From: a virus
UHGV virus genome: UHGV-0150949
DNA: 31,654 nucleotides
Strand: one strand, 5' to 3'
The notes under the pieces are model-generated. The model saw nothing but the letters and a program-made list of their open reading frames with translations. It made no database searches and was not told the DNA's origin. This document shows, piece by piece, positions 19,357-26,414 of this stretch; positions within the stretch are counted from its first letter, which is position 1; each line of letters opens with the position of its first letter. A program made the translations under genes and the position numbers.

Positions 19357-20769
19357 TTACCAACCGGAGGATGAGGGAACGTATATTTCTGTTTCTTCGC
19401 GGACCAATGCCGGGCAATGCATACACATCATCAGCGCATCAGCCAGGTTAGGAGATGGAATACCGAGCTTCTGCTTCATTTCGACCTTAGTCATAAGCTC
19501 CAGCTTCCCGTTGTTATTGAATTTGCGCTGAATCTGCGTCAGTTCTGCAAACAGCTTCTCCAGCATCTTCTCGCCTATCGCTTCTTTGTCGAAGCTCAGC
19601 ATGTCGTCGGGGTCTGCATACTCACCGTGGACAACCGCCCGATATGTCAGATACAACCTGTCAGCCAGCGCGTAATAGAATTGCGCTCGCTTATTGCGGA
19701 ACACATCGCCAATAGTGCGAACGTTGTCGCCCTGCACGACTTCATCAGCCCATGCTCCGGCCTGATACGGTGCATCTTCATCGAACGGCGATTCGCTGCC
19801 CTTAAACATCGTGGCGGTGATTTTCTTACCGGAGAATGCTTCCGTTGTCTGTCTGCGTAGCCCGGCACCAACGCCATCGCCATCCCACAGGTAGTGGTCA
19901 GCGCCGTCTTCAATCGCCAGAGAAGTAGCCCAGTCAGCACCCTCGTTGATGTCCATCAGTAGACCTTCGGCAATGCGCTTAACCACCGAACCGTGACGCG
20001 ATGCATAACCTTTAGCATCTGGCCCTGTATCTGATGGGTCATGCGCAGAGACAACAGCGCCTTTCGCTTTCCATCCGAGTTTCTTGTGCGCATCGGTAGC
20101 AGCTTCAAGCCATTCACGTTTGATGATTGCCATATCACTTGCGCTTACCGGCTCACCAAGCCAGATGTGACGATACAGTGTCGGATTTCTGCGTTTACAC
20201 TCTTCCATCTCCAGACGGAGAACTTCAGGAAAATGCGGGTTGTCGGTGTAGTTCACCGTCAGCAGGCAAATATCATCGGGAGGATTTACAACGAATCGCT
20301 GATAGGTATCGTCGAGGATGTTTTTCGGGTTAAAGCTCACCCATATTTCAGAGAACGGCTTACGGATGGTTGGTATCAGGATATCCCATGATTCCTTCGT
20401 TACCGCTTCCGCTTCCTCCACCCAGCAGATATCAATACCTTCTAGCGATTTAATCTTCGTCGGGTTGTTTTTTATGCCGTAGAACATGAATTCAGCATTC
20501 GTTCCGAGATGACGAATCATTGAACGCTGAATTTCAAACTCAGCCGAATATCCTTCACGCTCGATGGTGTCTTCAAGCAGCCGGATCACCGAATCGCTGA
20601 TACTGTTTTGCAGTTCACGAGCGCAGAGAATACGCACAGGCTGCCGACGCGCCGCCTCAACAAGCAGCCTCGCAATTGCCCATGATTTACCGCTACCTCG
20701 ACCGCCTTTGGCGACTTTGTAGCGATGCGCCTCAATGAACGGTTCAAAGATAGGATTAATCGAGGTCAT
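19357..20769 (-). CDS. terminase large subunit
   Basis: 470 aa. Walker A KGGRGSGKS near the N-terminus and a C-terminal nuclease domain. Length equals Sf6 TerL. ATGA overlap with TerS. Confidence 0.95.
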   Translation of the reverse strand: MTSINPIFEPFIEAHRYKVAKGGRGSGKSWAIARLLVEAARRQPVRILCARELQNSISDSVIRLLEDTIEREGYSAEFEIQRSMIRHLGTNAEFMFYGIKNNPTKIKSLEGIDICWVEEAEAVTKESWDILIPTIRKPFSEIWVSFNPKNILDDTYQRFVVNPPDDICLLTVNYTDNPHFPEVLRLEMEECKRRNPTLYRHIWLGEPVSASDMAIIKREWLEAATDAHKKLGWKAKGAVVSAHDPSDTGPDAKGYASRHGSVVKRIAEGLLMDINEGADWATSLAIEDGADHYLWDGDGVGAGLRRQTTEAFSGKKITATMFKGSESPFDEDAPYQAGAWADEVVQGDNVRTIGDVFRNKRAQFYYALADRLYLTYRAVVHGEYADPDDMLSFDKEAIGEKMLEKLFAELTQIQRKFNNNGKLELMTKVEMKQKLGIPSPNLADALMMCMHCPALVREETEIYVPSSSGW

Positions 20770-21206
20770 TTTCCGAATAGAGTGCTCATCGGTGATGTTT
20801 CAATCTGGATTGCGCCGCCGTCTTTGCCTGTTAATTCGTGATCAACCTTGTCGCGCCATTTATCCTTCTGTCGGTTCTTAAGCCAGAAGATGGCAGCTGT
20901 TGTATCAGGCGGGTAATACTTCTCAAGCGGAGTTTCGACAATTCTGTTTTCAATAACACGAATATCGATGTCTGGAGCCACGAAGCCCATAGCGCGTTGA
21001 TAAAGACGGTCACTAACTTCTGCATCAGCGACGGCCTTACCCTTTTTTATGGACTCCGAAAACTTAGGATAATCAAGCTTCCACTTGTTAATAGTTGACT
21101 CACTGACTTCGAAGAAATCAGCAAGCTCTGCATCGGTGTAGCCCAGCAAGCACAGTTTGCGTGCCTGTTCGGCGTACGCCTCTTGATACTTTGTTGGGCG
21201 CGCCAT
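20766..21206 (-). CDS. terminase small subunit
   Basis: 146 aa directly upstream of and overlapping TerL. N-terminal HTH-like region. Confidence 0.8.
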   Translation of the reverse strand: MARPTKYQEAYAEQARKLCLLGYTDAELADFFEVSESTINKWKLDYPKFSESIKKGKAVADAEVSDRLYQRAMGFVAPDIDIRVIENRIVETPLEKYYPPDTTAAIFWLKNRQKDKWRDKVDHELTGKDGGAIQIETSPMSTLFGK

Positions 21207-21451: not shown

Positions 21452-21555
21452 TGTTGGCTCCGTTTATCCGTTAAAAGGGATATCAGTTAAGTTATCCCGT
21501 GTAGGGTATAAGCCATTATCAAAGCCACTCTGTAGGGAATGGCTTTTGTAATGGC

Positions 21556-21581
21556 AATAAAAAGCCCCGCGAATGCGAGGC
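21556..21581 (-). terminator. intrinsic terminator between lysis and packaging genes
   Basis: On the - strand GCCUCGC-AUUC-GCGGGGC followed by TTTTTATT. Stem sequence nearly identical to the 1232 hairpin. Confidence 0.55.
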
Positions 21582-22973: not shown

Positions 22974-23485
22974 GTCTTACCCCCAATAAGGGGATTTGCT
23001 CTATTTAATTAGGAATAAGGTCGATTACTGATAGAACAAATCCAGGCTACTGTGTTTAGTAATCAGATTTGTTCGTGACCGATATGCACGGGCAAAACGG
23101 CAGGAGGTTGTTAGCGCAGCCTCTTGCCACCCGCTTTCACGAAGGTCATGTATAGAAGGCCGCAGCGTAACTATCACTGATGAGTTCAGGATAGCCAGTG
23201 GCTACGGCTCAGTTTGGGTGTGCTGTTACTGGGAGGCGATGACGCCTGTACGCATTTGTTGACCCGATTCTGCTTCCGGTATTCGCTTAATTCAGCACAA
23301 CGGAAGGAGCACTGTATGTTGCCGGGCCAGATGTCGGCTGCACAGGGAGTCATTGCCGACCCACGCCCTAAACACACTCGTAAATGCGCTTAGGGTTGTC
23401 TCCCCTGGTATCCAGTTATTCCCCGGCTGGGGATACTCCGCACGACGCTAATGCGTTTCGTCCCTCATGGGCTCGTCAGGCGCGC

Positions 23486-23504
23486 AATGCTCTTACCTGT
23501 TGTG
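23486..23504. repeat. 19-bp direct repeat, copy 1 (AATGCTCTTACCTGTTGTG)
   Basis: Exact 19-mer seen twice in the Q-S intergenic region, about 250 bp apart. Confidence 0.7.
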
Positions 23505-23673
23505 TGCCCATTATTAATCACACCGGGCCAGTGCGCCGAATTTGTTTACAAGGAGTCGGAAGACCTTGCTGACTTACAGGCTATTACGCCGCCATCAGAA
23601 CAACATCATCGTTTGCATTTATCTTTGTGGTCAGTTTCTAAAAAACCGCAAAGTCGCCAACTCTGACGAAAAC

Positions 23674-23697
23674 TATCGTTGTGCTGCCACAACGATA
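23674..23697 (-). terminator. perfect 10-bp hairpin, possible tR'-like late-leader terminator
   Basis: TATCGTTGTG-ctgc-CACAACGATA. On the - strand it is followed by GTTTTCG (weak U-tract). About 150 nt downstream of Q, where lambdoid phages place tR'. Confidence 0.3.
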
Positions 23698-23736
23698 AGA
23701 GCACTCGGTGCATTTAAGCCAAGCCCCATAAGGGAG

Positions 23737-23755
23737 AATGCTCTTACCTGTTGTG
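23737..23755. repeat. 19-bp direct repeat, copy 2 (AATGCTCTTACCTGTTGTG)
   Basis: Second exact copy, about 90 bp downstream of the Q stop. Confidence 0.7.
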
Positions 23756-23769
23756 CAAACAAAAAAAGC

Positions 23770-23847
23770 CACCGTTGCAACTTAAGAGTCACTAACGGCA
23801 GCTTATGCGAATAGTGTTGCTCATTTGCTCAATGATGTCAACACGTT
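23770..23847 (-). promoter_or_regulatory. expected location of late promoter PR' / qut
   Basis: TTGACA hexamer directly after the Q stop on the - strand. No convincing -10 found. Placement by analogy to lambda gene order. Confidence 0.3.
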
Positions 23848-24336
23848 CTATGCTACATGTTTAATTTTATCTACACGTTTCCGGTTTTTAAACGCACTAT
23901 CCAGAACCGGATAAATCATAAACAACGAGGCATTGAGGATTTCGTCAACTTCCCGGCGACAGGTTGCGAGCGATGGTTTTTGAATGCGCCCGCCGCCACG
24001 GCATAACATCTTGCGAGGTCTTGCGACACGATGATAGTAAGATGCAATGGCGTGCTTGGAAGATCCATGAGCGTAGTAGCTGAGGAGGATGCCAAAGGCT
24101 TTCTTGTCAATGTACATGACGGAATCGACGACCTGAGAAATCAACATTCCATCATCATCATTGCACATTGGCCTTGTCATAACTCTTCCCGGCTCTACGC
24201 TCTCCATGAACTTCGCTATTACGCTGCTCATGCGCTTTTCAAGACGACCTGAATAAACCCATGCTCCCCACAGTTCAAGCCAGCCATTCAGCCAATCGTG
24301 CTGCTCTTTGGTGAGGTTTAGTTCTCTTATGCTCAT
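23848..24336 (-). CDS. Q: late antiterminator Q
   Basis: 162 aa in the canonical position between the nin region and lysis genes. Cys/His-rich central region. Confidence 0.8.
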   Translation of the reverse strand: MSIRELNLTKEQHDWLNGWLELWGAWVYSGRLEKRMSSVIAKFMESVEPGRVMTRPMCNDDDGMLISQVVDSVMYIDKKAFGILLSYYAHGSSKHAIASYYHRVARPRKMLCRGGGRIQKPSLATCRREVDEILNASLFMIYPVLDSAFKNRKRVDKIKHVA

Positions 24337-24521
24337 CGTCTTCCCCTCTTGCCCTGTTTGACCATCAGGACGCCGTTAACTATTACATGACGCTCGCCTT
24401 TGCTGTCTCGGTTGTACTTGAGCACTGTTCCTCTTGCGCAGGAAAGCATCCTTGCCACTTCGGTCTGATTGCCTCGTGTCTGGATAAGAAGCTCTGGTAT
24501 CGTTTGAATTGTGGCGTTCAT
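24333..24521 (-). CDS. ninH: NinH
   Basis: 62 aa. Matches lambda NinH as recalled (TIPELLIQTRGNQTEVARMLSCARGTV.KY). Confidence 0.85.
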   Translation of the reverse strand: MNATIQTIPELLIQTRGNQTEVARMLSCARGTVLKYNRDSKGERHVIVNGVLMVKQGKRGRR

Positions 24522-24880
24522 GCGTTCTCCAGTTCGGTGATTTTTATTCCAAGCCTTCCACCTGGTACTTTCACACCACGAATTACGCGAATGTCATCGA
24601 ATTGCTCGTCGTCTTCCGCAAATCCGGCGTGGATAAGGGAGTCGAGTAAACCTTTCAGGATGTTGTCGAGGTCGCGGCGGCGGGAGTCTGGAACGTCTGC
24701 GATGACTTTGATGCGGAGTCGTGATTTGGTGAAAATGTCTAACTTAAGTTGGCGGATGATTTGCTGAACGTCTTTTCGGTATTTCTGGCCTTTATCGCTG
24801 ATGTAGTATTGGCTTCCCCGTCTTCGCCAGTAGGTGTTCAGCGACGGTGGGTACGGAAGTGTGAATCTGTATTCTGCCAT
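24518..24880 (-). CDS. rusA: Holliday junction resolvase RusA
   Basis: 120 aa. RusA pattern (FTLPYPPSLNTYWRRRG...DVPDSRRRDLDNILKGLLDSL...GGRLGIKITEL). Confidence 0.9.
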   Translation of the reverse strand: MAEYRFTLPYPPSLNTYWRRRGSQYYISDKGQKYRKDVQQIIRQLKLDIFTKSRLRIKVIADVPDSRRRDLDNILKGLLDSLIHAGFAEDDEQFDDIRVIRGVKVPGGRLGIKITELENA

Positions 24881-25405
24881 TTATCCTCTCCCATGATTAT
24901 GGTGATACCCCAATCGTGATTCCGCCAATTTTCTGGCATTAACGGCTAGAGATATGTCATCGTATAATCCAAGAAATATCTTTTTATTATCACTGTTTAT
25001 ATATGCGCCCCACTTTTTATTCTTCTTATAGTAGGCAACCCCCATTACTCCAGAGCGATTATTAATAGGCTTTTTTCTGTTCCTTGAGTTCTGTTTATCA
25101 TCTACAACGCGCAAATTGCATATTCTGTTATCGCTTTTAACTCCATTTATGTGGTCAATTTCCCCATCAGGTTCACTTCCATAAAAGGATATCCATGCGA
25201 TTCTATGAGCTCGACAAACTTTTTTATTTACAGATATACGAACGTATCCTTTTTCATCTATAGAACCAGCAATCTTACCGGCATATGTTGAATTCCAGCA
25301 CTCTCTTACACTTTCTCTTCTCTTGTATATAAACAAACCTGTTTCGCTATTATATTCATACAATTCATTGATTTCTTTTTGTGTTGGATATCTTTTACCG
25401 TTCAT
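24881..25405 (-). CDS. HNH homing endonuclease with AP2-type DNA-binding domain
   Basis: 174 aa. HNH core (CRAHRIAW...IDHINGVKSDNRICNLR) and C-terminal AP2-like domain (SGVMGVAYYKKNKKWGAYI...). Markedly AT-rich compared with its neighbours. Confidence 0.85.
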   Translation of the reverse strand: MNGKRYPTQKEINELYEYNSETGLFIYKRRESVRECWNSTYAGKIAGSIDEKGYVRISVNKKVCRAHRIAWISFYGSEPDGEIDHINGVKSDNRICNLRVVDDKQNSRNRKKPINNRSGVMGVAYYKKNKKWGAYINSDNKKIFLGLYDDISLAVNARKLAESRLGYHHNHGRG

Positions 25406-25692
25406 GACTTAATCTTCCCCTCCTTCAGCAGTATCGCCTGCGTCCTGATCACGCCTTCGAGGTGGTAAAGTCTGGCGTCTTTGTTGTCGAGAATCCGGGT
25501 GCGTCGGTCGATCTCCGCGTGGCAGTCACTACAAGCCCATGCGCCGATCAGGTCGTCAGGCTTCATTCCCGTTCCGCAAATTCCAGCCATCCGGTAATGT
25601 GCCAGAACTGTGGTTTCAGGATTGCCATTGCATACGCCGTAAATACGTACCTGGCATTCTCTTCCGCGCGCTTCTTTGCGTAGGTTAGCCAT
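25402..25692 (-). CDS. YbcO-like Cys-rich nin-region protein (DUF1364-type)
   Basis: 96 aa. Resembles DLP12 YbcO as recalled (RGRECQVRIYGVCNGNPETTVLAHYR...CSDCHAEIDRR). Confidence 0.75.
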   Translation of the reverse strand: MANLRKEARGRECQVRIYGVCNGNPETTVLAHYRMAGICGTGMKPDDLIGAWACSDCHAEIDRRTRILDNKDARLYHLEGVIRTQAILLKEGKIKS

Positions 25693-26414
25693 TAAGCAGC
25701 CTCCCCTGTTACTTTCAGCATTCCGTTATCGAGCAGCTTTCTGGTCAGCCACTGTTGACCACGCCCGGTGATTTTTGTGGTGAACGATATCTGTATTCCG
25801 TGATTTGTGTTGACCGCTGTTTCTTTCACTGTGAAATAGCCGCGATCCATATATTCCTGCATTGGCACATTGCGCCGGGAACCTGAAGCAATAAGGATTT
25901 TGTGATCGCGCATCCACGCAAACAGTTTGTTTGGACCAATTCCAACAACCTTTGCATAGTTTCCAATCAAAATTCCGCTGGCCTCGCCAACGCGATCGGC
26001 AAACTCAACTTTAGGTGCGGCAATTGCGAGCTGGTTTTCCAGTTGCATTTTCTGCTCAGCAAGATCAGCAGCAAGGCGCAACGCTTCTGGTAGCGTTTTG
26101 GGGATATTAACCGCAGTTTCTTCAAGCTCTCGCCAACGGTCAACAAGACGAGCGGTGAATTCCGGCGACAACTGGGCTACAACGACAATACTGTCTCGCT
26201 TTCCTTGTTCGCCTTCGAATGCATACACACAAAAACTTTGATTTAAGCCTAACCCATTGATTCTTCCACAATCCTCAATTTGAGGAAGCCGGATAACACC
26301 ATTCTTAGCCAGCGTTTCGATGGTACGTTTCACATTGTCATGACGCTTACCCACCAACTCAGCGATTTCAATGCTTGTCATTTTGATGGCATTGCCATTT
26401 ATTAACTCATTCAT
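25692..26414 (-). CDS. phage regulatory protein: Rha-like N-terminus with antirepressor KilAC-type C-terminus
   Basis: 240 aa. N-terminus TSIEIAELVGKRHDNVKRTIETL is Rha-family-like. C-terminal half resembles KilAC/Ant domains. Confidence 0.75.
   Translation of the reverse strand: MNELINGNAIKMTSIEIAELVGKRHDNVKRTIETLAKNGVIRLPQIEDCGRINGLGLNQSFCVYAFEGEQGKRDSIVVVAQLSPEFTARLVDRWRELEETAVNIPKTLPEALRLAADLAEQKMQLENQLAIAAPKVEFADRVGEASGILIGNYAKVVGIGPNKLFAWMRDHKILIASGSRRNVPMQEYMDRGYFTVKETAVNTNHGIQISFTTKITGRGQQWLTRKLLDNGMLKVTGEAA

Follow-up and report, generated by a model that had tools for sequence, protein, structure and literature searches.

In HK97/HK620/P22-like lambdoid phages of E. coli, a free-standing homing endonuclease gene of the HNH-AP2 type, I-HmuI-like in its nuclease core, has probably invaded the ybcO (hkbD)/rusA boundary within the nin region and spreads there by intronless homing, a reading to which we assign a probability of roughly 0.65. 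Its parts differ in strength. We hold with high confidence that a gene of a homing-endonuclease family is present at this site as a discrete insertion, and we give slightly better than even odds to the idea that the enzyme is currently active in homing with the ybcO-rusA junction as its target. The architecture, family and lifestyle of such an endonuclease are already known; the temperate lambdoid nin-region setting, together with a sharply bounded and perfectly linked recoded block at the start of rusA, makes a tidy addition. Searches of the literature by RefSeq accession, and for homing endonucleases located at ybcO/rusA or anywhere in the nin region of lambdoid phages, yielded no description of the gene. 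Homing endonucleases have mostly been studied in lytic phages (T4, ICP1, Skunavirus), and the present case offers a clean example in temperate lambdoid phages, with potential targets in abundance, the junction being found in about 1,000 of 5,426 complete E. coli genomes.

The ybcO-rusA boundary with and without the gene

The window (the whole stretch of DNA analyzed, 31,654 nt) is a P22/HK620-like (lambdoid) prophage in reversed orientation, in which the minus-strand gene order runs NinB, NinX-like, Roi/Ant, YbcO/DUF1364, endonuclease, RusA, NinH and Q, with the lysis and terminase genes coming next. Neither Rfam nor tRNA scans of the window gave a match. The features referred to below are as follows.

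24881..25405, minus strand: free-standing HNH-AP2 homing endonuclease gene, intact open reading frame of 174 aa
25082..25213, minus strand: HNH_3 (His-Me finger) nuclease core, aa 65-108, catalytic D84-H85 ... N97 ... N106/N109
24911..25054, minus strand: C-terminal AP2-fold DNA-binding domain, about aa 118-165, three strands plus helix (predicted fold)
25402..25692, minus strand: upstream flank, YbcO/DUF1364 (hkbD-like) nin gene (Pfam YbcO, 7.6e-44)
24518..24880, minus strand: downstream flank, RusA Holliday-junction resolvase gene (Pfam RusA, 2.4e-16; partial match to NCBIfam PRK09786)
25402..25405, minus strand: ATGA overlap of the ybcO-like stop and the endonuclease start
24881-24883, minus strand: endonuclease stop TAA, touching the rusA ATG at 24878-24880
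24885..24892, minus strand: Shine-Dalgarno-like motif GGGAGAGG inside the 3' end of the endonuclease gene, read from sequence
24854..24877, minus strand: recoded 5' block of rusA, nt +3 to +26, giving MAEYRFT instead of MNEYQFV
25692-26414, minus strand: Roi/Ant gene
24333-24521, minus strand: NinH gene
23848-24336, minus strand: Q gene
19357-21206: terminase genes

The open reading frame originally predicted at 24881-25405 was borne out exactly, on the minus strand and at 174 aa. Its termini do abut the neighbors as claimed, with the ATG overlapping the ybcO TGA and the TAA touching the rusA ATG, and it is indeed more AT-rich than its flanks, the GC profile reaching its lowest value in the window over this gene (35% versus 47%). 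The gene has a GC content of 0.354 and a GC3 of 0.297, compared with 0.543/0.598 for ybcO, 0.496/0.554 for rusA and an overall GC of 0.473 for the window, and it forms the sole 525-nt stretch with a GC content of 0.38 or less in the 31.6-kb window (z = -3.75; 0.06% of positions are this low). No promoter or terminator on its own strand was predicted inside the endonuclease open reading frame.

The upstream YbcO/DUF1364 gene (25402-25692) itself bears nuclease labels: its PHROG family (phrog_131) is named "HNH endonuclease" and its Pfam family "putative nuclease YbcO." In the RefSeq-derived annotations of phages related to this one, the name HNH endonuclease consequently belongs to the neighbor and not to the insert, which may confuse readers of these annotations.

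We searched GenBank phage records with a 2082-nt flank query running from ninH to roi. The query matched 260 records at 91-97% identity, always in two pieces spanning 1557-1560 nt, and the matching phages included HK620, HK97, HK022, N7, CUS-3, HK75 and mEpX1. Since the matched span is 1557-1560 nt as against the 2082 nt of the query, the 525-nt insert is absent from these phages, and none of the 260 flank-matching records covered it. When 50,697 phage records were searched by blastn with the endonuclease DNA, no match was obtained; at the protein level, phage sequences reached 48% identity at most. In HK620, HK97, HK022, N7, CUS-3 and others, ybcO (hkbD) and rus lie directly adjacent with a 4-nt overlap. 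The original prediction of an insertion between two normally adjacent genes is thus supported by alignment with relatives that lack the insert, in which hkbD and rus are contiguous, and the presence/absence polymorphism is precise to a single nucleotide. Its description of that adjacency as "DLP12-type" was right in that the neighbors are contiguous in relatives, but the label is loose, the flanks being HK97/HK620-type hkbD-rus alleles.

We also surveyed bacterial genomes and metagenomic virus collections for filled and empty junctions. The endonuclease gene was present in 33 of 5,426 complete E. coli genomes, always at the ybcO-rusA site and at 95% identity or more. The ybcO-rusA pair itself occurred in about 996 of these genomes (~18%), and about 3% of the junctions were filled. 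The gene is therefore far from uniformly carried by related phages (0 of 260) or by E. coli genomes that possess the pair (33 of about 996). In IMG/VR, at least 115 loci showed a contiguous empty junction, as did about 960 E. coli genomes. In IMG/VR, 18 filled contigs shared 98-100% amino-acid identity and the next relatives were at most 51% identical. Likewise, in a protein collection of 5.8 billion clusters, the gene corresponded to one 90% cluster of 145 sequences, with relatives beyond that cluster at most 49-56% identical, and the exact protein of the window was present on 339 contigs. A scan of the GTDB species-representative genomes gave one distant Kiritimatiellae match only. The low frequency of filled junctions (about 3%) does not suggest a strongly driving element.

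A recoded rusA start linked to the insert

The junction was defined by direct pattern extraction; a MAFFT pairwise alignment with HK620 misplaced the 525-nt gap. Among 131 IMG/VR loci, 115 were empty and 16 were filled. Nearly all empty sites read ...AAGATTAAGYC ATG AAC GAA TAT CAG TTT GTG CTT CC... (RusA MNEYQFV...), the empty ybcO-rusA junction sequence being ...CTGAAGGAGGGGAAGATTAAGCCATGAACGAATATCAGTTTGTGCTTCCATACCCGCCGTCGG..., and the 16 filled sites read ...AAGATTAAGYC ATG AAC GGT AAA... (endonuclease MNGK...). The endonuclease gene and the rusA of empty sites open with the same 7 nt (ATGAACG), and from this shared start context it follows that the endonuclease uses the empty-site start codon of rusA together with its ATGA coupling to ybcO. 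At the 3' end, the insert reads GGGAGAGG-A-TAA-ATG, with rusA then running ATG GCA GAA TAC AGA TTC ACA CTT CCG (MAEYRFT...). The GGGAGAGG motif was invariant across 19 of 19 aligned filled loci, and we infer that, with the new ATG after the TAA, it restores the initiation of rusA. The insert thus gives rusA a Shine-Dalgarno motif and an ATG that are both new, along with seven recoded codons; given the takeover of the old start and these new initiation signals, the early-right operon stays intact.

We compared filled and empty alleles position by position, using 15 filled and 99 empty loci. There were 12 near-fixed differences, all of them confined to rusA nt +3 to +26, where dxy reached 0.36. 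Outside this block, dxy was approximately equal to pi across ybcO, rusA and ninH (about 0.01-0.04 per site, rising to about 0.12 within one variable part of ybcO), such that filled and empty alleles draw on one pool of polymorphism beyond the recoded block. The block was linked to the endonuclease in 56 of 56 cases, i.e., 18/18 in IMG/VR, 33/33 in E. coli genomes and 5/5 in metagenome contigs, where the IMG/VR count includes a degenerate, protein-level pattern and the E. coli count refers to adjacent coordinates in the same 33 genomes. Conversely, it occurred at none of the 115 empty sites sampled. Degenerate searches of IMG/VR and metagenome contigs for a donor RusA with the N-terminus MAEYRFTLPYPP returned endonuclease-linked copies only. 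Because the block is found solely beside the endonuclease, the inserted unit comprises the open reading frame plus the rewritten rusA start and measures about 545 nt, beginning right after the shared ATGAACG and ending at rusA nt +26.

The recoded block is probably an immunized target (half-site) that forms the right-hand end of the inserted unit, although it could also be leftover donor sequence and not a selected immunity patch. The linked 24 nt lead to a specific prediction of both the recognition site and the mechanism of immunity. In a stricter version of the homing reading, the mobile unit would be a self-contained cassette of gene plus immunity patch (the open reading frame with the rewritten rusA ribosome-binding site, start and first seven codons), which replaces the recognition sequence of an active enzyme that cuts endonuclease-less prophages at superinfection or co-induction. 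Since such a cassette replaces the recognized sequence, the differing 21-24 nt would define the target outright. We regard this version as conceivable, with the odds running about two to one against it; if true, gene conversion in the nin region would be driven in one direction, and prophages might interfere with one another there.

Diversity, relatives and spread

We analyzed nucleotide diversity in the endonuclease gene and its flanks using the same 17 filled loci. Pi was 0.0076 in the endonuclease gene, compared with 0.043 in ybcO and 0.029 in rusA, a diversity 4-6 times lower than that of the flanks; the density of segregating sites differed likewise (0.029 versus 0.13-0.14). The endonuclease gene is younger than the allelic variation that surrounds it. 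Its open reading frame was intact in 18 of 18 IMG/VR copies, and its variants comprised 12 synonymous versus 6 nonsynonymous changes, corresponding to a pN/pS of about 0.12, which indicates purifying selection on the gene. It was present with both major ybcO haplotypes, and the filled prophages differed in roi, Q and other modules, i.e., they represent several mosaic backgrounds. Purifying selection combined with low diversity over several backgrounds fits active spread.

Outside E. coli, a homologue was found in Symbiopectobacterium sp. (GCA_051710365.1, contig JBPETA010000371.1, positions 1-1181), where ybcO occupies 143-433 and is followed by the homologue with the same ATGA overlap. The two proteins share 71-73% identity, and the contig is colinear with the window at 72.7% nucleotide identity over both genes. 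Two interruptions break the homologue, one after about codon 62 and one past the HNH motif, and the interrupting sequences have GGCTTTGTTGAATAAAT ends at 626-645 and 1059-1076. These ends resemble IS903-type inverted repeats. The endonuclease lineage thus keeps to the ybcO junction across genera and its copies decay, as expected of a homing element. The homologue has a GC content of 0.36-0.38 beside a ybcO gene at 0.57. Because this diverged copy is equally AT-rich, AT-richness is a lasting property of the lineage, and we dropped it as proof of a recent arrival.

Further polymorphic endonuclease sites exist in this phage group. The closely related prophage of E. coli GPEC172 carries a 44%-identical HNH-AP2 paralogue in the Q-holin interval (L002 4231-4743), absent from the window (region 23220-23797), as well as a GIY-YIG gene between a DUF2560 gene and the lysis genes (L002 1686-2171), also absent from the window (~21530-21560); the flanks of both extra nuclease genes are about 97% identical between GPEC172 and the window. 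As a separate observation, IMGVR_UViG_3300045988_022724 contains a truncated copy of the endonuclease and a 183-aa HNH-AP2 paralogue, about 44% identical, 3' of an Rz-like lysis gene (L022 3720-4271).

Plain recombination would also be consistent with the pattern read as horizontal spread, namely a gene younger than its flanks, present on several backgrounds and with a homologue at this junction in another genus. The gene might be an ordinary mosaic accessory gene that entered once, by an illegitimate or homeologous event at a nin gene boundary that brought along 24 nt of foreign rusA start, and that has since been moved by recombination in the flanks, with its nuclease serving some other role (for example, an attack on the DNA of competitors or the host, or help with recombination together with NinB and RusA). 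Mosaicism is typical of lambdoid nin regions, where exchanges occur at the borders between genes (PMC2629481), and the near equality of dxy and pi right up to the insert means that flank recombination is frequent anyway. The low frequency of about 3% is in keeping with this explanation, and a neutral insert without a homologue to recombine with would also show low diversity and shuffled flanks. We nevertheless consider it unlikely. The family of the protein consists overwhelmingly of free-standing phage homing endonucleases, and a diverged homologue at exactly the same junction in another genus, with paralogues at other intergenic sites, is the pattern of site-specific selfish elements. Selection on the gene and its low diversity over several backgrounds also point to active spread, and a donor RusA with the variant N-terminus was not found in IMG/VR or the metagenome contigs. 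Together, the presence/absence polymorphism, the linked recoded block, the low diversity relative to the flanks and the same-junction homologue in another genus support the mobile homing-endonuclease insertion that had originally been proposed.

The protein and a proposed route of homing

The nuclease core of the protein was readily recognized by Pfam HNH_3 (PF13392), which scored 60.6 bits against a cut-off of 24.8 over aa 65-108, and by the PHROG family phrog_99 ("HNH endonuclease") at 5e-63. The RefSeq label of the gene is the generic "HNH endonuclease signature motif containing protein," and no NCBIfam model matches the protein. The sole PADLOC match was to the model "homing endonuclease"; this model being generic, a role as an anti-phage defense gene was dropped. 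The AlphaFold2 model of the endonuclease had a pLDDT of 94 and displayed both the beta-beta-alpha-metal fold of HNH_3/I-HmuI-like nucleases and the three-stranded antiparallel sheet packed on a C-terminal helix that defines the AP2/ERF fold. The best solved-structure match by sequence was I-HmuI of phage SPO1 (1u3e; E = 0.0097), which is the nearest characterized relative.

We aligned the endonuclease with 65 homologues of 36-49% identity and with I-HmuI. In the resulting 66-sequence family alignment, H67, D84, H85, N87, D92, N93, N97 and N109 were invariant, and N106 was at least 90% conserved. D84, H85, N97 and N106 align with D74, H75, N87 and N96 of I-HmuI, of which we take D74 and H75 to be the Asp-His general-base pair and N87 and N96 to be metal-binding Asn residues. 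Degenerate catalytic residues, which the original prediction had named as evidence against it, were thus not what we found, D84, H85 and N106 all being intact. One catalogued sequence, P0001, the representative of the 90% protein cluster, carries D84V at the catalytic Asp; this variant, seen on 1 contig versus 339 for the allele of the window, may be inactivated.

The AP2 assignment rests on the predicted fold and on homologues that bear PF00847, and not on the protein's own Pfam score. Pfam AP2 (PF00847) gave 14.8 bits (E = 0.036) for a partial match over aa 118-142, which lies under the gathering cut-off of 33.3 bits and so falls short of strict membership in the family, whereas about one-third of the homologues bear PF00847 plus PF13392. 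Of the original designation "HNH-AP2," the HNH part is therefore clear and the AP2 part, though under the Pfam threshold, is supported by predicted fold and homologues, and the label is correct as far as fold and family go. The combination of HNH with AP2 is an established homing endonuclease architecture (Magnani 2004, as cited in PMC10448857). Judged from sequence and structural modeling, the protein is an intact I-HmuI-like HNH nuclease with a predicted C-terminal AP2-fold domain.

Phage AP2 domains can act as site-specific transcriptional silencers (bioRxiv 10.64898/2026.02.23.707548), which raises the question of a domesticated, nuclease-dead DNA-binding protein that regulates or silences transcription in the manner of the CasPR anti-CRISPR repressors, and one catalogued variant does bear D84V. 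However, CasPRs consist of CapR plus AP2 without HNH and occur in Bacillota (bioRxiv 10.64898/2026.02.23.707548). Moreover, the window has D84, H85, N97, N106 and N109 intact, with little or no variation at these positions in the family, and the D84V variant is confined to a single contig as against 339, making this explanation very improbable. Terminase-associated HNH proteins like gp74 occur in HK97-like phages, yet a packaging role of this kind is less probable still, since about 4 kb separate the gene, which belongs to the early-right nin region, from the terminase genes (19357-21206), since HK97, HK620 and 260 other related phages package normally while lacking it, and since the protein matches HNH_3 plus AP2 and not the small stand-alone HNH type.

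Under the homing reading, the endonuclease would be expressed by read-through from pR, during lytic growth or induction. Its AP2 domain would bring the enzyme to the conserved empty junction (...AAGATTAAGYC ATGAACGAATATCAGTTTGTG CTTCC...) carried by a related phage or prophage in the same cell, where the HNH domain would nick or cut. Recombinational repair templated by the carrier genome would then copy the gene with short co-conversion tracts, the outcome being intronless homing and localized marker exclusion, and the recoded 24-nt block would render the carrier allele refractory to its own enzyme. Among HNH homing enzymes, MobA, MobE and I-HmuI are single-strand nickases (PMC2988022). The cut made by a free-standing endonuclease often lies hundreds of base pairs from its gene (PMC2988022), and the target therefore need not sit at the junction.

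By analogy, the nearest worked-out counterpart is T4 MobE, a free-standing HNH endonuclease encoded between nrdA and nrdB that nicks the 5' region of nrdB in T2, with T2 and T4 differing at the nick site (PMC2790892). As with MobE, the gene of the window is a free-standing HNH gene wedged between two conserved, co-transcribed genes that would depend on upstream promoters for its expression, and in relatives without the endonuclease its putative target would lie near the 5' end of the downstream gene, where the carrier differs (PMC2790892). Unlike MobE, it has a different C-terminal DNA-binding region, with the predicted AP2 fold, and it resides in a temperate lambdoid phage as opposed to a lytic T-even host; in addition, MobE nicks at nt 122-126 of the downstream gene, whereas the rusA differences start 3 nt in. 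With I-HmuI, an HNH nicking endonuclease of Bacillus phage SPO1 (PDB 1u3e), it shares the D-H...N...N catalytic constellation, but similarity is confined to the N-terminal ~90 residues, and I-HmuI is intron-encoded, with C-terminal DNA-binding modules that are not AP2. The HNH-AP2 homing endonucleases known as "IPA-HNH" in ICP1 phages have the same arrangement of N-terminal HNH and C-terminal AP2 in free-standing phage genes (PMC10448857), although their HNH domains are too divergent for the HNH_3 profile, which the endonuclease of the window matches strongly.

Should the enzyme prove active, it would contribute directionally to nin-region mosaicism and might provide a new site-specific nuclease for nicking or cutting; an inactive one would be one more annotated "HNH endonuclease" among many.

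Elsewhere in the window, the holin-Q interval (22974-23847) comprises 874 bp without an open reading frame of at least 100 aa and has a GC-rich core (0.54-0.57) at about 23100-23600; no tRNA or Rfam match was obtained within it. The interval contains a perfect 19-nt direct repeat, AATGCTCTTACCTGTTGTG, at 23486-23504 and 23737-23755. Compared with many related loci, it holds about 230-375 extra bp, and the alignment pieces overlap by 18-19 nt. A small insertion or a duplication within the late leader could account for this extra DNA.
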